From a virus (Duplodnaviria > Heunggongvirae > Uroviricota > Caudoviricetes): a stretch of 29,461 nucleotides of DNA. Location of the stretch: the IMG/VR virus record IMGVR_UViG_2565956711_000012, one strand, 5' to 3'. The notes beneath the pieces are model-generated. The model saw nothing but the letters and a program-made list of their open reading frames with translations, was not told the origin of the DNA and ran no database searches. Of the stretch, positions 9,786 through 24,114 are shown one piece after another (the stretch's first letter is position 1; each line of letters begins with the position of its first letter). The position numbers were made by a program, and so were the translations under genes.

Positions 9786-10389
9786 CAGTCTGTCCTTCTC
9801 TTACGTTTATGATTTGCGGCTCATCGCATACAGGCTGTCCGTTCACCACAATGGTTGCCCCCAGTCGCAGGAATTCCGGCAGCGTGGACAGGTCTATCTC
9901 ATCATCAAGACGGAATTCCTGTTCCCATGTAACGGCCCACATGGTGATCCCGAGATTGTCCAGGCCACCCGACCAGAGGTTTTCAGCGGCGATGTTCTCA
10001 GCCATACGCTCAGCCTTCATGCCCGCAGCCGCTTCACGACAACTGATACGACGGGCAAGGCGTCCGGCAATAACCTCACAGCGGGCATCGCGCGGGTATC
10101 CCCAGAAATCAGCCATCATGATGTAGGCCGCCCAGGTCACAAGTCCGGTCATGCCGCGACGGTTCTGGATATTCCTGACCCGTAAGGCCGCAATACGGAT
10201 ACTGCCGCCGCGCCCGGACATATAGCTTTTGACCTGATCCGGGGTGTTAAACTGACCGATGTGACGCTCCACCTTTTCAACCCGGTCAGGTTGCTTTTCA
10301 CCCTCCAGTTCAGCTTTCAGCCAGTTAACAATATTCTCGGCGGCACTGACCGTACTGCCCAGGGTGACGAACGCCGGACGTTCATTCAT
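9766..10389 (-). CDS. head-tail joining protein candidate (Mu gp37-like, DUF1834-like)
   Basis: 207-aa ORF in the neck module between capsid and sheath genes; 4-bp overlap with upstream gene. Confidence 0.5.
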   Translation of the reverse strand: MNERPAFVTLGSTVSAAENIVNWLKAELEGEKQPDRVEKVERHIGQFNTPDQVKSYMSGRGGSIRIAALRVRNIQNRRGMTGLVTWAAYIMMADFWGYPRDARCEVIAGRLARRISCREAAAGMKAERMAENIAAENLWSGGLDNLGITMWAVTWEQEFRLDDEIDLSTLPEFLRLGATIVVNGQPVCDEPQIINVREGQTDDKEND

Positions 10390-10931
10390 TGCAGAACCTC
10401 ATTCCAGAAATCCCCGATGACGTGCAGCAGTTCCTGACTGTTCCCGGAGGACAGGCCGAGGAACTCACGCTGCGGGATGTTCAACATACGTTTATGCGCC
10501 CCCACGGTTTGCCATACCCCGTGTTTAAGCGCCCGTCCAAATGCCTGTGAGATGAGTCGCTTATGGGCTGACACAGACACCGAGCCGGAAAACCCCTCGT
10601 TGTGCGTCCGGCCATAATCAAGCGGCGTACCCACACGAACGACAGAGCCGCTGACCACATACTGGATACTGTCGAGCAGATCGCCGTTGCCCTGTAACAG
10701 GCTCTGGTTGCTGTGTCTGGTTTTCGCGTAGCTGTCAGACCAGTCCTGCCATTTCTCGCCGGCAGGACTGGATTTTTCGCTGGAGATGCGCCGGCGGGTC
10801 TGTGACTCCACCACAGCGCCAATGCTCTCCAGTAGCTCCTGTTGCAGCGACTGGTCAGCCAGTCGCTCAATCGCACGGCGAATGTCCTGAAACTTCTGGT
10901 CTCCTCTGACCTCGACAGTAATTCCCATCAC
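10386..10931 (-). CDS. phage virion morphogenesis protein (Mu G / P2 gpS-like family)
   Basis: 181-aa ORF; N-terminal pattern I-x-V-x-V-R-G...I-R-R-A-I-E-R-L and downstream SPAGEKW motif resemble the virion-morphogenesis family. It sits in the neck module rather than between F and I as in Mu. Confidence 0.5.
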   Translation of the reverse strand: MMGITVEVRGDQKFQDIRRAIERLADQSLQQELLESIGAVVESQTRRRISSEKSSPAGEKWQDWSDSYAKTRHSNQSLLQGNGDLLDSIQYVVSGSVVRVGTPLDYGRTHNEGFSGSVSVSAHKRLISQAFGRALKHGVWQTVGAHKRMLNIPQREFLGLSSGNSQELLHVIGDFWNEVLQ

Positions 10932-12941: not shown

Positions 12942-13898
12942 TTATTTCTCCTGCTTACGAACGGAAAGGAATTCTTCTTCGCTGATGCCCATATGGCGGC
13001 ACATCGCGAGGTCTTCGTCAGAAAGCGAGGCATGACCTTCGGTGCTTTCTTTTTTGGTCGTCGTGGTCTTGCTGACAATGACCGGTGCCGCTTTCACGAA
13101 TTCAGCAAACTGCTTGCGGCCTTCTTCAGAGCGGCAGGTGGCGAGATACATTTCGCGGTTGGCCGGTGCGACTTTCCCCGCCTCGATGGCGCTGTCCACC
13201 AGTGCTTCTGATTCTTTGATGGCAATATCATTGAGTTTGCTTTCAGCGCTTTCCGCACGGTTAAGTGCTAACTGGTGAGTCTCAACCGGAATGAACTTCG
13301 TCAGGTCGGGATTCTCAGCACGGTTAAGCGCCACCTGCTCGGCGGTCTTAATCTGCTGAATGGCTTTTACTGCGTCGTCTGCTGTGGCAGTGGCCGCGAG
13401 GCCAAGCACTGTCACAATCTGGACAGGTACGGTCATCGTGTTTTCCTCGGAGTTGAGTGCGGGTAAATCAAGGTTGGGTTTGTTGGTCAGCGCGGCGCTG
13501 GACAGGCGGGTAACCTGACCATCCGCTGTGAACCGAAAGGCCGGACTGTAATAGCGGTACTTCTTGCCGCGCAGCTGCGCCACGCCGTCATCAGTCCATT
13601 CAACGTGCGCCTCCACCACGCCATCACTGACGCGATAGCCGTCAATCCAGCCATAAGCCGGGGCTTCATCGCCTTTCGGGCCTTTCAGTTCGGTGGAGTG
13701 CTCGATATCAAAGGGGAGCTTTGGATAAGCCATCGAGGCACGAATGATGGCTTCAGGATTGTTGTTCACCCACGAACGCCCATCACGCCCTGTAAAGGTT
13801 CCCGCCGGTATCATCGGCAGCCATTCCGGCAATGCATCATCGGTAAGGTCAGGAAGCTGAAAGCAGAGCGCCAGCAATTCCGTATTGTTCGGGTTCAT
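12942..13898 (-). CDS. I: head maturation protease/scaffold, Mu I-like
   Basis: 318-aa ORF; N-terminal protease-like region followed by a long Ala/Glu-rich helical C-terminus (scaffold-like); precedes the capsid gene. Confidence 0.8.
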   Translation of the reverse strand: MNPNNTELLALCFQLPDLTDDALPEWLPMIPAGTFTGRDGRSWVNNNPEAIIRASMAYPKLPFDIEHSTELKGPKGDEAPAYGWIDGYRVSDGVVEAHVEWTDDGVAQLRGKKYRYYSPAFRFTADGQVTRLSSAALTNKPNLDLPALNSEENTMTVPVQIVTVLGLAATATADDAVKAIQQIKTAEQVALNRAENPDLTKFIPVETHQLALNRAESAESKLNDIAIKESEALVDSAIEAGKVAPANREMYLATCRSEEGRKQFAEFVKAAPVIVSKTTTTKKESTEGHASLSDEDLAMCRHMGISEEEFLSVRKQEK

Positions 13899-13958
13899 GG
13901 TGTTGTCCGGTCACGTTGTTTACTTCCGGACAGTGTGGGGGGAAACGGGGACTCAGGT

Positions 13959-13974
13959 GGATTAACCGGCTTCA
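13959..13974 (-). promoter_or_regulatory. 16-mer TGAAGCCGGTTAATCC (copy 2, about 60 nt upstream of the I ATG)
   Basis: Exact repeat of the 16-mer upstream of the endolysin gene; here it lacks the hairpin partner and U-tract, so the shared element is not simply a terminator. Confidence 0.45.
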
Positions 13975-14042
13975 CTGTAAACGCGGCATGAAACCGCGTT
14001 TAAAACACGTTTAAAAACGCTGTGGCGCGTTTAACGATTTTT

Positions 14043-14061
14043 TGACGTGTCATCATGACGT
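14043..14061. repeat. direct repeat TGACGT-N7-TGACGT in the F-I intergenic region
   Basis: Plus strand TGACGTgtcatcaTGACGT; same hexamer pair with the same 13-bp phasing recurs at 12040-12058. Confidence 0.5.
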
Positions 14062-14107
14062 TATAATCGTTAATGCCGCCACGCGCGTTGTGGGATGGTT
14101 TTTATCT

Positions 14108-14896
14108 TTATGGCGAATGACTGTCAAACGCTTCCTGTTTTCTGCGTAGCTGTTCATCCAGCTCGCGACTGCGGGAGATTCCGGGGTTGTACGCCCAGCC
14201 GGGATCAATCCCCTCCGGAATGGTCTCTTCTTCGCCAGTGCGTTTGTTAACCCACCTGACCGTGCGGACTTCAGGGGCTTCCGTGTTGATAGTGCCGTTG
14301 GCCTTCATCTGCTCATACTCATACCGGCTGATTTGCCGCGTACCGCATTTGCAGCCCCAGCCGTTCGGCCCCATGTGTGTTCGCCAGAACGGATGATCCA
14401 CCGGCAGGCAGACATCCTTCCAGCGAAGATGCTCTGCACGGTGCTCACGTGAGGGGCCGACGGTGTAGACAAGATAAGGCATTGCCCGTTGGGTCCGTTC
14501 AATACGCTGCCATTGTCCCGCCGCGCGGGCTGTCCGCATATTGGTGTCGTAGATAACGCGCATCCGGCGGTCACTGCCGAGCTGAACAGTACGGGTTTCA
14601 CCGGTCAGTGGGTCATCCATCAGTTGCTGTCCCCACCATCCACGTTTGACGAGCAGAGGTTTAAGAACTTCGCGAAACTGCTCAAAGGTCTGGCCGTTCT
14701 CCAGCGCGTCCTCCACGAGCTGGCGAACGTCCGCCAGCAAATCAAGCTGCGTCATTTTTGCCACAGTAAAGCCGATGCTGTGTTCTTCCATCCAGACATC
14801 GCGGTAATCAAATCCCGGCTTCAGCTTTTTCGCCTTCAGCCAGGCCAGTGCTTCCTGGGGAATAATGCTGTATTTATCGCTGACCGGCTTAGCCAT
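14108..14896 (-). CDS. F: head morphogenesis protein, Mu F-like
   Basis: 262-aa ORF directly after the portal gene (8-bp overlap); size and position match Mu F. Confidence 0.8.
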   Translation of the reverse strand: MAKPVSDKYSIIPQEALAWLKAKKLKPGFDYRDVWMEEHSIGFTVAKMTQLDLLADVRQLVEDALENGQTFEQFREVLKPLLVKRGWWGQQLMDDPLTGETRTVQLGSDRRMRVIYDTNMRTARAAGQWQRIERTQRAMPYLVYTVGPSREHRAEHLRWKDVCLPVDHPFWRTHMGPNGWGCKCGTRQISRYEYEQMKANGTINTEAPEVRTVRWVNKRTGEEETIPEGIDPGWAYNPGISRSRELDEQLRRKQEAFDSHSP

Positions 14897-16457: not shown

Positions 16458-18040
16458 CAGAGTAATCCCCGCTGATTTTTAAGACCCCGTGTGATGCGGA
16501 CCTGACGGTGTTCATTACGCTCATCGGGGCGGGAAGGTTTCTTTAACTTGTGGACTTCATAACGCCGGCAGTCCTCGCGACTGGCGAGGAAACCGAGAAA
16601 AATAGCGATAGCGGAGTCACCGTGACGCTTGCGGCCATCGGTGCCGGTAGTGCGTGCATCATCAATGCCAGGTACGCCGCGATAAAGCTGAATAGCGCCG
16701 AGATCGGTGATCACATCTTCATGCTTTGGCAGTACCAGTTCATTGTCTTCGAATGCCGCACGGAACCGGGGCATGTTTTCCCGGTAGTATTTGACGGAAA
16801 GCTGCACCTGCTCAACTTCATCACCGTATTTTTCCGCCGCCTGTTCTGCCAGATACTGACCGTTACCCCGTGCATCGAGCTTGATGCCGTCGCGGCGGGG
16901 AAGACGATCACAGATATAAAACAGCGCCTGTTCCTGCTGTTTAAATGGCACATTGCTGAGTTCCACCAGGAACGGGACGTTGCGCGTCGTGTCATCGTTG
17001 ACTGTCACCGGCGCAAACACGGTCAGGTCACCGTTACGCGCAAAGTCCTCCCCCAGACAGTGGCGCAGGTTCTGCGGCAGTTTCTCCAGTTCGGGAAGTA
17101 CGACCGTCTCCAGCCATTCCTGCATGTCCACACGGCGCAGCCCGTCCGGCATCGCGTTAAAATCAGCCGTACCGGTGAAGCGCAGGACAACGGTCGGACC
17201 TCTGGCCGCGCGTTCGCGCAGGGAACGTGCGATATAGACGCCACCGCCGTTCTTCGGCTCGCAGTAATACTCCTCGCGGGCATCTTCCTCTGTGGCCGTG
17301 TCGCTCAGCAGGTTAGCCAGCCATTCCGCTTCGCCCTCCACAGACCAGACTTTTTTTGTGACCTGACAGATGCGCTGATACAGCCCCTCAGCAATGGCCG
17401 TTTCAATATCGACGTGATGGACAGAGTAGCGTTTTTTCCCGGCCCGGCTGTCGGTGATGATGGTGTTAAACAGGTTATCAATACCGTTGTGGGTGGAAAT
17501 AAGGCGAACATTATTCCCCCACATTGTCAGCGCCAGCGCCGCCTTGAGTACCGCTGCAAGGTCAGCCTGGAATGCGGCCTCATCAATGATGACGTTACCC
17601 TGCATACCACGCAGGTTCGACGGGTTAGACGACAGTGCTTTGATTTTGTAGCCACTGGCGAACTGGATGACATAGACCAGGATGTCTTTGTCTTCATCCT
17701 TCAGCACTTCTTCACCAATGCCAGACGCGGCGCGGTCATAGGCTTTCGCCCACATGGCACAGGCATCAATAAACTCACGGGCCATGTCTTTCGTCGTACC
17801 GACGTAGAACGTGTCGCACCCGCCGGCCTCCACCGACATTGAGCCATTCAGGGCCGCGTCAGCCGCTTCCGCCCAGGTCAGACCGGTACGACGCGACTTC
17901 TCGGCAATCTTCAGTTGAGAGGAATCAGCAATCCACCGCTTCTGGTAGGGAAGCAGTAGCTGGCTTTTGTCGAACTCACCCGACAGGATAGCCGCAGCGG
18001 ACTGACTGGTGAGTGTTCTGTCCGGCGTCATCGTCGTCAT
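16457..18040 (-). CDS. terminase large subunit (Mu gp28-like)
   Basis: 527-aa ORF between terminase-small-like and portal genes; acidic nuclease-like C-terminal half. Confidence 0.85.
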   Translation of the reverse strand: MTTMTPDRTLTSQSAAAILSGEFDKSQLLLPYQKRWIADSSQLKIAEKSRRTGLTWAEAADAALNGSMSVEAGGCDTFYVGTTKDMAREFIDACAMWAKAYDRAASGIGEEVLKDEDKDILVYVIQFASGYKIKALSSNPSNLRGMQGNVIIDEAAFQADLAAVLKAALALTMWGNNVRLISTHNGIDNLFNTIITDSRAGKKRYSVHHVDIETAIAEGLYQRICQVTKKVWSVEGEAEWLANLLSDTATEEDAREEYYCEPKNGGGVYIARSLRERAARGPTVVLRFTGTADFNAMPDGLRRVDMQEWLETVVLPELEKLPQNLRHCLGEDFARNGDLTVFAPVTVNDDTTRNVPFLVELSNVPFKQQEQALFYICDRLPRRDGIKLDARGNGQYLAEQAAEKYGDEVEQVQLSVKYYRENMPRFRAAFEDNELVLPKHEDVITDLGAIQLYRGVPGIDDARTTGTDGRKRHGDSAIAIFLGFLASREDCRRYEVHKLKKPSRPDERNEHRQVRITRGLKNQRGLL

Positions 18041-21919: not shown

Positions 21920-21946
21920 CGAAAAAAAAGCCGGATTAACCGGCTT
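21920..21946 (-). terminator. intrinsic terminator ending the early (mor-moron) transcript
   Basis: Minus-strand RNA: AGCCGG-UUAAU-CCGGCU stem-loop followed by 8-9 U; located 30-50 nt after the moron stop. Confidence 0.65.
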
Positions 21947-21948
21947 CA
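21933..21948 (-). promoter_or_regulatory. 16-mer TGAAGCCGGTTAATCC (copy 1, about 64 nt upstream of the endolysin ATG)
   Basis: Identical 16-mer occurs again at 13959-13974, about 60 nt upstream of the I ATG; candidate late-activator site. Confidence 0.45.
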
Positions 21949-21978
21949 TTCAATGGATATAACTAGCGAATTCACTCA

Positions 21979-22488
21979 CTATGCTTTTCGTAAATCGCAG
22001 GAGTAAGTAACTGACTCCATAACTTTTCGAATAGTGGCTCGTAATTCCATTCCAGATGTAAAACCTGATGCTGAATAAGAGTCGTCTTCTCTTCTATTTG
22101 CCGTCGCTTTTGTAAAAATCTCAGCAACTTGATTGATTGAGTTTTCTGAGTCTTTCTTTCCCGTCACCCCCTCTACGAGTTTTACACATTGATTAACAGC
22201 AGCCAGTGATTCACCGTCAATATCTTTACCACTTGAAAACACCATTGCTGTAACTGCATCTGTACCTAATGCCCAAACGGTACTTACAGTGGAATCTTCA
22301 GTTGTTGCTGTATAAACCTGAACACCATCAACTATGGCTCCTTTTTTCCATTCTGTTTTTTTCAGGACACCCATTTTATCAAATTGAGAAATAAGCTTTT
22401 CATTACCTGTTAGTTCATCTTTATCGAAAAAATAGTGATACCCCCCAACTAAAATAACGGCCAGTATTAATGCATCAGTAAATTTCAT
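21979..22488 (-). CDS. moron: membrane-anchored or secreted protein of unknown function
   Basis: 169-aa ORF; N-terminal hydrophobic stretch (FTDALILAVILVGGYHYFF); clearly AT-rich compared with flanking DNA; GGAG about 7 nt upstream of ATG, inside the end of mor; followed by an intrinsic terminator. Confidence 0.6.
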   Translation of the reverse strand: MKFTDALILAVILVGGYHYFFDKDELTGNEKLISQFDKMGVLKKTEWKKGAIVDGVQVYTATTEDSTVSTVWALGTDAVTAMVFSSGKDIDGESLAAVNQCVKLVEGVTGKKDSENSINQVAEIFTKATANRREDDSYSASGFTSGMELRATIRKVMESVTYSCDLRKA

Positions 22489-22491
22489 ATG

Positions 22492-22902
22492 TTACTCCCT
22501 GCCAAATAAATCCAGTTGATGCTTGCGGTGCTCTAGTTTACGCATGCGTCTGATGGCTTTATACACCGTTTTATAGGTAACACGGTAACGCTCAACCAAC
22601 TCTGTGATGTTTCTGCCATTGAAATCACGCCAGATTTTCATATCACGAATCAATGACTCAAGAGTCTGGCCGCGTGGGAAATAAATCTGCATACCGCCAA
22701 TCTGACAGCTAATCGCGTAAACCAGCTCCAGAGAGATACGTGGGTCAACGCCATGCTTTGTCAGTTCGCCACGCAGCAGCGTATTCAGTTCTGTCAGCAG
22801 TGCAGGGAAACGCACTGTTTCCGCCGAACTGTCATCGTCCAGGTGCTCCAGAATGCTGTCATCCTGGATATCACCAAACAGATCATTCTGCTTTTCGCTC
22901 AT
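22492..22902 (-). CDS. mor: middle-operon regulator Mor (Mor/C family transcription activator)
   Basis: 136-aa ORF; DLFGD near the N-terminus, FPALLTELNTLLRGEL, IRDMKIWRDFNGRN and C-terminal HTH YKTVYKAIRRMRK match Mor as I recall it; sits right after the gemA-like gene as in Mu. Confidence 0.8.
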   Translation of the reverse strand: MSEKQNDLFGDIQDDSILEHLDDDSSAETVRFPALLTELNTLLRGELTKHGVDPRISLELVYAISCQIGGMQIYFPRGQTLESLIRDMKIWRDFNGRNITELVERYRVTYKTVYKAIRRMRKLEHRKHQLDLFGRE

Positions 22903-23426: not shown

Positions 23427-24114
23427 CGTTACTTCCCTCCGTCTGGCGGTCAATGCGCTCAATTTCTGCAATCAAAAGCGCACATGCTTTCACTAAATTT
23501 CGACGATAGTCTGATGGTTTGAAACTGTCATCATGCCAGTCAGCAGGCCAGTATTCTTCAGCCGCCAAAGGCTCTATGTAACTGATAGCCGCTGCGGCCA
23601 GCTCACCTTCAATATATGTGTCGTCCTGCTGTTTGGTGTATCCCTTAACCGATGTTTGCCGCTGGCGCTCGGCCAGAACATCAGATGTTGCTGGTGACAG
23701 TGAAAGCGATGGCGGTGCGGCTCCAATAGCTTTGCCCAGATCGTTGTTTTGCTTTTCCAGACATTCGATACGGTCTGCCTGCTGATTGATGTGATCATCC
23801 TGAGCGGTGTTAGTGCGTTCCTGTTCAGCTATGCGTTTTTGGGCCTTGACCAGTTCATCCGCCAGTGTCCATTCTGATTTTGACAGGACGTCTATTTCAT
23901 CCAGCAACAATTCCACGACTTCAAGAGTGAAACTGCGCTGGGTCTCATTGATAGTTTTAAGACGATTAATACTGGTATCGGGGCCAAATGGCGGCATTGC
24001 TTTACGTTTGCAGATATCGTCACGTATCTGCTGGATATTGATAATCGTATGCCTAGTCATTCGCTTAAACTCCATATTTAGTTGCCTGCGGGTGCACGAA
24101 GCCCCGGCAGGCAT
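23404..24114 (-). CDS. hypothetical early protein with central coiled coil (start uncertain; internal ATGs possible)
   Basis: 236-aa ORF between gam and the gemA-like gene; no recognisable motif. Confidence 0.4.
   Translation of the reverse strand: MPAGASCTRRQLNMEFKRMTRHTIINIQQIRDDICKRKAMPPFGPDTSINRLKTINETQRSFTLEVVELLLDEIDVLSKSEWTLADELVKAQKRIAEQERTNTAQDDHINQQADRIECLEKQNNDLGKAIGAAPPSLSLSPATSDVLAERQRQTSVKGYTKQQDDTYIEGELAAAAISYIEPLAAEEYWPADWHDDSFKPSDYRRNLVKACALLIAEIERIDRQTEGSNDEPRIPD

Follow-up and report, generated by a model that had tools for sequence, protein, structure and literature searches.

Phage Mu's strong gyrase site (SGS) is the best-studied site of its kind and is used in structural work on gyrase and in plasmid engineering, and the source of its special behaviour is debated. 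In the Mu record AF083977, the gyrase cut (17879/17880), a predicted terminator and the late promoter P_I are all annotated inside the 196-bp intergenic region between genes G and I. The right arm of the site is essential, as its removal abolishes the preference of gyrase, and the left arm is dispensable (PMC13284261). By cryo-electron microscopy, the right arm was seen to wrap the GyrA C-terminal domain with its A/T repeats facing the protein (PMC11626157). Here, we describe a 209-bp gap between genes F and I (positions 13899-14107) in a 29,461-nucleotide stretch of Caudoviricetes DNA (IMG/VR record IMGVR_UViG_2565956711_000012), referred to below as the window, which belongs to a Mu-like prophage. 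Homology, conservation, phasing, central position and spacing make it probable that this gap is a composite cis-acting region with the layout of the Mu G-I region, in which a Mu-type central strong gyrase site is combined with an activator-dependent promoter for I. From these properties we infer that gyrase binds and cleaves the site, that the site has a role in replication, that the activator Mor binds, and where transcription starts.

A prophage of E. coli ECONIH5 (NZ_CP026202.1) matches the segment 13700-14400 of the window (701 bp, gap included) with 100% identity. This prophage type is rare, being present in 5 of 5426 complete E. coli genomes, and a BLAST search of the E. coli genomes with the 61-bp core region of the gap gave matches solely in the five genomes with an ECONIH5-type prophage. 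Other adjacent late genes of the prophage abut or overlap. The original prediction, made from the letters of the window, had proposed that the gap combines the I promoter with a gyrase site, and all the sequence features that it listed (209 bp free of genes, an inverted repeat, short repeats, a TGACGT pair and a 16-mer) are present. Homology to characterised Mu elements and conservation in relatives support this proposal at the level of sequence. It had also assigned the Mu gyrase site to the corresponding Mu interval; the site lies in the G-I intergenic region and not in gene G.

The predicted gyrase site and its right-arm core

When the Mu G-I region was aligned to the window, a check that had been suggested at the outset, one strong co-linear block was found, in which Mu 17898-17933 (AAACGCGCCACGGGATTTTTAAACCGGTATTTAACG) and the window (AAACGCGCCACAGCGTTTTTAAACGTGTTTTAAACG) are identical at 28 of 36 positions (78%). 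This core block is the top match to the Mu region across the whole window on both strands, and it falls in the gap. The local alignment score was 37, against 17.4 ± 2.4 for dinucleotide shuffles, of which 1 in 2000 reached 37. The aligned Mu block sits on the I side (right) of the Mu cut, within the 133-bp "Mu SGS" fragment (17812-17944) of the Topo-Seq paper. The proteins encoded on either side are distant between Mu and the prophage (F 35-36% and I 24-25% identical), yet the non-coding block is 78% identical, which argues for selection on the block. At Mu 17881, beside the cut, the 133-bp "Mu SGS" given in the Topo-Seq supplement and AF083977 differ in one base (aaaatcaCccgc versus aaaatcaGccgc). 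The elements of the predicted site are the following:

13996..14035, minus strand (read 14035-13996): conserved right-arm core GTTAAACGCGCCACAGCGTTTTTAAACGTGTTTTAAACGC, homologue of the Mu SGS right arm, motif positions about +19 to +58
13988..14034, no strand: right arm, +20 to +66, with A/T tracts phased at about 10.5 bp, corresponding to the GTTTTAAACG-like repeats of the original prediction
14071..14117, no strand: predicted left arm, motif positions -17 to -63 in the register of the predicted cut, running into the 3' end of F and poorly conserved
14043-14048 and 14056-14061, plus strand: TGACGT direct repeats, read from the sequence, flanking the predicted 4-bp stagger at 14051-14054

The predicted stagger (14051-14054) lies 18 nt before the core, a register identical to that of the Mu cut. 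In this register, the A/T tracts at +20-24, +37-44, +49-55 and +61-63 fall on the positions that are A/T in the published gyrase consensus (+19-22, +39-41, +49-53 and +61-64), and the arm contains GTTTAAACG-like repeats (CGCGTTTAA, CACGTTTAA and CGCGTTTAA at 13995, 14006 and 14026). The A/T periodicity of the right arm (10.2-11 bp) is at the 99.5th percentile of the window, and that of Mu at the 98.3rd percentile. A right-arm template of strong and weak positions (G+C versus A+T) gave 33 matches out of 47, equal to Mu, which places the site only in the top 0.7-0.8% of positions. The two TGACGT copies, which had been pointed out before, do flank the predicted cut and are symmetric about the stagger, and GTCATGATGAC is nearly palindromic, but they are specific to the ECONIH5 prophage type and not kept in relatives, which carry TACGATGAT at this place.

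Between the predicted site and the prophage ends there are 15,696 bp on the left and 16,281 bp on the right. This places the site at 49.1% of the prophage length, compared to 48.7% in Mu and 48.0% in Klebsiella phage Kp4866-3, and the site remains central despite a prophage length 4.7 kb below that of Mu, a shorter F and the relocation of the G-like gene to a downstream position. The earlier impression that the gap is roughly central in the genome was therefore right, as the gap lies at 49% of the 31,978-bp prophage.

To score the cut itself, two approximate gyrase matrices were rebuilt from 416 published scored cleavage sites, using bases 1-200,000 of W3110 and a register with G at 0 and C at +3. 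The rebuilt frequency matrix agrees with 95 of 130 consensus positions, and the cross-validated correlation with the published scores was about 0.55-0.82 depending on the model (ridge, symmetric or reduced), the best being 0.76-0.82. With these matrices, the stagger in the window scored 6.7 and 8.4 (ranks 26 and 27 of 29,332), the maximum of the gap, and the Mu site scored 7.0 and 9.4, so that both sites are within the top 0.1% of positions. The Mu-homologous register was the local matrix optimum in 11 of 12 lineage representatives, an agreement that is partly driven by the shared core. A crude strong/weak template based on the 133-bp published gyrase consensus was dropped, since the Mu site was not among its top scores in Mu.

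Conservation was assessed with three close relatives, in Pluralibacter, in Kluyvera and in Klebsiella phage Kp4866-3, whose I proteins are 65-68% identical and whose DNA is about 70% identical overall. The original prediction had tied its case to conservation among relatives, and this is what we found: conservation within the gap is highest in the core (83-93% identity), followed by the Mor box discussed below (72-89%), with 46-52% identity upstream of the core and 38-48% in the promoter spacer; the stems of a hairpin at the start of I also form a conserved island. A BLAST search of phage records with the 209-bp gap gave Kp4866-3 as the sole match (gap positions 66-129, core included, E 6e-8); other matches among phages were chance matches with E around 8.

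This pattern bears on the idea that the gap has no cis-acting role and is either a decayed remnant of the relocation of G or a hidden small protein gene. Gene G of Mu does lie between F and I, and the G-like gene of the prophage is found elsewhere; the record of phage D108 has a small "gene 31.5" annotated in the G-I region, and five of the eight open reading frames (ORFs) of at least 20 aa that overlap the gap are 21-35 aa long, the other three (128, 51 and 51 aa) lying mainly in the flanking genes. However, no ORF of at least 40 aa lies wholly within 13899-14107, and two sharply conserved islands with about 40-50% identity between them, together with indels of 14-21 nt by which the gap of relatives differs, are unlike the pattern of decaying coding sequence. 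Moreover, the gap has no detectable similarity to G, the match to Mu G being at 23473-23985 of the retrieved ECONIH5 segment, and a search of the gap against Rfam gave no family at threshold, its sole match (mir-592, 22 bits against a threshold of 67) being spurious. We therefore consider a remnant or a hidden gene extremely improbable.

The core is also found far beyond these relatives. Searching 2.9 million viral contigs for the exact pattern AAACGCGCCAC-N4-TTTTTAAAC (20 specified bases) gave 36 contigs, and in 35 of the 35 that have recognisable neighbours, the motif lies 134-220 nt upstream of the I gene in constant orientation, with either G (Mu type) or F (ECONIH5 type) as its other neighbour. 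The 36 contigs represent at least six lineages, G+C-rich ones included, whose F and I proteins are 24-40% identical between lineages, and the sequence around the core differs from lineage to lineage. The shared consensus is approximately A5-6-T-NN-TT-AAACGCGCCAC-GGCG-TTTTTAAAC-G. When a contig of one related core-bearing lineage was used to search the E. coli genomes, no match was found, so this search gave no link to the O157 Sakai prophage.

The stretch AAACGCGCCAC GGCG TTTTTAAAC is near-invariant even in G+C-rich lineages, which is tighter than bendability alone seems to need, and the core is partly palindromic (TTAAACGC-N6-GCGTTTTTAA), a symmetry that would also suit a dimeric DNA-binding protein. 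The core might thus be the binding site of a dimeric protein other than gyrase, either a phage protein or a host factor that is conserved, with a role in transposition, packaging or the organisation of domains. We know of no such protein for Mu, and a co-evolving phage factor should have altered the core, given that the flanking phage proteins are only 24-40% identical between lineages. In addition, a structure shows the Mu counterpart of this DNA wrapping the GyrA C-terminal domain (PMC11626157), and we judge a dimeric non-gyrase protein to be a very unlikely explanation.

The Mor box and the predicted promoter of I

The I-proximal part of the gap resembles a Mor-dependent promoter. In the middle promoter Pm of Mu, the Mor dyad element spans -51 to -36 and is centred at -43.5 (PMC4287176). 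With the +1 of Pm set at 9224 from permanganate-sensitive positions (PMC4287176), the dyad is placed at Mu 9173-9188 (AGTAAAGCCGGTTAAT), and the element AGTGAAGCCGGTTAAT in the gap is identical to it at 15 of 16 positions. The features of this promoter and of its activator are listed here:

13961..13976, minus strand: Mor box AGTGAAGCCGGTTAAT, predicted Mor binding site at -51 to -36 of the I promoter, holding most of the 16-mer
13924..13937, minus strand: candidate -10 hexamer CACACT (13937-13932), 23 nt after the box, with the predicted start at about 13925
21925..21950, minus strand: second Mor box AATGAAGCCGGTTAAT (21950-21935), upstream of the endolysin gene, 14 of 16 positions identical to the Mu dyad
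22492..22902, minus strand: mor gene, 136 aa, product with 64% identity to Mu Mor (E 7e-61) and with 38% identity to Mu C, Pfam Mor E 3.6e-31

The 16-mer TGAAGCCGGTTAATCC at 13974-13959 (minus strand) had been noticed because of its exact second copy at 21948-21933 (minus strand), upstream of the endolysin gene (lys). A scan allowing up to three mismatches gave these two matches against 0.17 expected. The exact repeat is real; however, it is part of a Mor-type (middle-promoter) box and not the C-type late element that the name "late 16-mer" implied. The prophage has exactly two Mor boxes, one upstream of lys and one upstream of I; the 11-mer TTAACCGGCTT at 7323 on the opposite strand is a chance match and not a dyad. 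The lys box overlaps a perfect terminator hairpin (GAAGCCGG-TTAAT-CCGGCTT, then T8; RNA fold -12.6 kcal/mol), the same layout as in Mu Pm.

The start at about 13925 follows from the centre of the box (13968.5) minus 43.5. In Mu Pm (AGTAAAGCCGGTTAATCCGGCTTTTTTT-N13-TATCCT) the -10 hexamer lies 22 nt after the box, and a -10 hexamer of the A2/T6 type is present 22-23 nt past the Mor box in all seven promoters that were compared: TATCCT in Mu Pm, CATGAT and CAAAAT at lys of the window and of Kp4866-3, CACACT at I of the window, GACACT at I of both Kp4866-3 and the Pluralibacter relative, and CATACT at I of the Kluyvera relative. A promoter scan of 13700-14300 found neither a -35 element nor a sigma-70 consensus promoter.

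A six-frame search with Mu C found only the Mor-like gene, and no homologue of C, in both the ECONIH5 prophage and Kp4866-3. Together with the positions of the two Mor boxes, this suggests a two-tier cascade, early and then Mor, that operates without C. The boxes also suggest that lysis and head genes are driven, in some Mu-like phages, by Mor-type promoters in the absence of a C activator. In the region 21979-22902 (minus strand), which includes mor, an ORF of 169 aa without a Pfam match separates mor from the lys promoter.

The proximity of the two elements raises the question whether the gap could be purely transcriptional, with the end of the lys-F transcript, a Mor-dependent I promoter, and a phased A/T core that forms curved, UP-element-like DNA or a site for IHF, Fis or H-NS that boosts or silences this promoter. 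The core lies just 20-75 bp or so upstream of the Mor box, with a hairpin in between, phased A-tracts are typical of promoter-upstream curvature too, and the gyrase matrices place the predicted site below the first rank. On the other hand, the core is present in Mu as well, where P_I is of the C type and lies about 80 bp further downstream, and there it falls within the experimentally defined gyrase fragment (17812-17944). It is also kept in lineages that have unrelated downstream sequence and no Mor box, which argues that conservation of the core is independent of promoter type. Inspection of the core by eye gave no match to the IHF consensus WATCAANNNNTTR, which also speaks against this explanation. 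We regard it as unlikely. Both this and the alternatives raised above lose ground, since the core is kept whatever the promoter type and its Mu counterpart is part of gyrase-wrapped DNA.

We thus favour the combination of a gyrase site and a promoter, which would work as follows. The F-proximal two thirds of the gap (about 14117 to 13988) would form the gyrase site, to which host gyrase binds, with the stagger at about 14051-14054. The right arm on the I side, with its phased A/T tracts and core, would wrap the GyrA C-terminal domain and supply the transported DNA segment. Owing to the central location of the site, processive supercoiling would draw the prophage ends together for synapsis by the transposase as replicative transposition starts. 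The I-proximal third would serve as an activator-dependent promoter for the head genes from I to T, and probably also for the tail genes: a Mor dimer would bind at 13976-13961 (-51 to -36), and RNA polymerase would use CACACT, with initiation at about 13925. Transcripts coming in from F may be weakly terminated by the inverted repeat that separates the gyrase site from the promoter.

Several points besides the partial palindrome of the core weigh against this combined function. For the ECONIH5 prophage, the interpretation is a prediction from sequence. Conservation in relatives extends neither to the surroundings of the predicted cut nor to the left arm. The approximate matrices rank the authentic Mu site 40 and 18 of 36,588, and not first, which is a failed calibration, so that they were used only for comparison with Mu and the motif test is only supportive. 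Of the promoter elements, the -10 candidate CACACT is weak, matching TATAAT at 3 of 6 positions. The terminator hairpin that lies over the box at lys and in Mu Pm has a degenerate 3' arm at the I promoter, both here and in Kp4866-3, and the half that belongs to the box is intact, which argues that the box is kept for protein binding and not as a hairpin. Finally, according to what Oram and Pato (2004) are said to have found, the central sites of some Mu-like prophages are cleaved by gyrase and yet do not support Mu replication, and positional homology is therefore no guarantee of strong-site behaviour.

A further-reaching version would be that the core of about 36 bp (about +12 to +46 from the cut) is a sequence-specific module, more than bendable DNA, that makes Mu-type gyrase sites special, and that this lineage has, in addition, a C-less cascade of two tiers, with Mor acting directly on the lysis and head promoters and with gyrase site and Mor promoter physically coupled. 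We find this conceivable but rather doubtful, and put it forward tentatively.

Hairpins, prophage ends and neighbouring genes

Two hairpins in the gap flank the Mor box:

13978-13986 and 13994-14002, no strand: inverted repeat TAAACGCGG-N7-CCGCGTTTA, arms 100% complementary and 7 nt apart, between the core of the gyrase site and the Mor box
13904..13932, minus strand: hairpin TGTCCGG-N15-CCGGACA directly before the I start codon, RNA fold -11.0 kcal/mol

The 8-bp inverted repeat of the original prediction is thus present and turns out to be a separate hairpin, lying between the gyrase-site core and the Mor box. By our own rough estimate, a perfect 8-bp repeat with a short loop would arise by chance in 209 bp with a probability of about 0.02. 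Its RNA folds with -14.7 kcal/mol into a 10-bp stem, and just three U residues follow the G+C stem. A terminator scan did not call the repeat on the minus strand; two weak sites that were called are on the plus strand only, the wrong strand for the prophage genes, and were discarded. The repeat may be a weak terminator of transcripts coming from F. In Mu and five other lineages, a G+C-rich inverted repeat is found about 40-70 nt beyond the core, each lineage having its own (for example GGGGG-N7-CCCCC, GCGGGC-N10-GCCCGC and GCGGCG-N6-CGCCGC), so that the structure is kept and the sequence is not; a T-run after the repeat is absent outside Mu. These repeats may stabilise RNA 3' ends, act as weak terminators or form a DNA structure that ends the wrapped arm.

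Four relatives keep the arms of the hairpin at the I start, and one pair has changed in a compensatory way, from G:C in this prophage to T:A in the relatives or the reverse. Since the predicted P_I start at about 13925 lies just past the 5' arm, transcripts reading through from F could form this hairpin over the GGA-containing ribosome-binding region, and transcripts from P_I could not. Alternatively, the hairpin could be a DNA operator that spans the -10 and +1 positions.

The order of the prophage genes is Mu-like on the minus strand of the window: repressor, transposase A, B, gam, a gemA-like gene, mor, endolysin, terminase, portal, F, I, T and the tail genes. The genes that matter for the gap, and the prophage ends, are:

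14108..14896, minus strand: F-like minor head gene, 262 aa (Mu F 439 aa), Pfam Phage_Mu_F E 8.5e-13, PGAP annotation "phage minor head protein"; its stop is the upstream border of the gap
12942..13898, minus strand: I protease/scaffold gene, 318 aa, Pfam Mu-like_Pro E 4.6e-48; its start is the downstream border of the gap
10386..10931, minus strand: G-like virion morphogenesis gene (PGAP annotation), Pfam Phage_tail_S E 1.3e-17, weak match to Mu G (21%, E 8e-6)
4646-4651 and 36628-36633 of the retrieved ECONIH5 chromosome segment: prophage ends, the left end lying beyond the right edge of the window

The G-like gene is placed downstream of the head and head-completion genes and not between F and I. 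In ECONIH5, the prophage interrupts the host gene narX; its termini read TGACTAG...GCGCGGCA (TG...CA), with a 5-bp target duplication (GCCGT) at both sides. These clean termini suggest a recent, possibly intact, transposable prophage. At its right end (34080-36563 of the ECONIH5 segment), pairs of oppositely oriented tail-fibre and assembly genes lie beside a serine recombinase, which resembles the Gin-type invertible host-range segment of Mu.

Comparison with known systems

The predicted site is closest to the Mu SGS. Both are intergenic, directly upstream of I and central (49.1% of the prophage, 48.7% of Mu), with the right arm pointing toward I, and both have the AAACGCGCCAC-N4-TTTTTAAAC core, phased A/T tracts, a spacing of 18 nt from cut to core, and a promoter for I next to the site, the cut and the promoter being predicted in the prophage. 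They differ in the upstream gene, which is F in the prophage and G in Mu, in the sequence of the cut site and the left arm, which are unrelated, and in the distal right arm, where the prophage has another hairpin. The flanking proteins are 24-36% identical, and the prophage site is known from its sequence whereas the Mu site has been characterised. The prophage is in this respect a natural variant, combining an unrelated cut site and left arm with a near-identical proximal right arm, and the comparison of at least six lineages points to a short conserved core that is open to direct mutation. Such sites in Mu-like prophages can also be annotated with this core as a simple signature.

Candidate gyrase sites at the centre of Mu-like prophages have been considered before. 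Oram and Pato (2004) reportedly tested the central gyrase sites of prophages of E. coli O157 Sakai, Haemophilus influenzae, Salmonella Typhi and Neisseria meningitidis, which are alike in location to the site described here; to our knowledge, the ECONIH5 prophage type was not among them. That study is cited in PMC3820752 and PMC10052514. The strong gyrase sites of plasmids pSC101 and pBR322 are preferred by gyrase and have high Topo-Seq motif scores (PMC6379681). In contrast to the predicted site, these two have no sequence homology to the window and no central-prophage context. Pato and Banerjee (1999) reportedly found that the pSC101 and pBR322 sites were unable to replace the Mu site.

With respect to transcription, the I promoter of the prophage is most like Mu Pm: the activators are 64% identical, the dyads agree at 15 of 16 positions, the spacing of the -10 hexamer is alike, and there is neither a -35 nor an extended -10 element; moreover, the lys copy has the overlapping terminator hairpin and T-run as in Mu. 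However, Mu Pm drives a middle operon that ends in C. The prophage has no C gene, its boxes lie directly upstream of lysis and head genes, and the terminator hairpin overlapping the I copy has a degenerate 3' arm. Mu P_I, which is C-dependent (AF083977, 17977-18043), likewise lies upstream of I and downstream of the gyrase site, and has a -10 without a -35 and depends on an activator, but the prophage lacks a C homologue and its upstream element matches the Mor site and not Mu P_I.

Both Mor-type promoters and central gyrase sites of Mu-like prophages are already known, and the ECONIH5 gap adds a probable example of each. Two features stand out, both modest: a right-arm core that is sharply conserved across divergent lineages, and an apparent C-less cascade with Mor boxes directly upstream of the lysis and head genes. 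Compared with the systems above, these findings extend known biology and overturn none of it.

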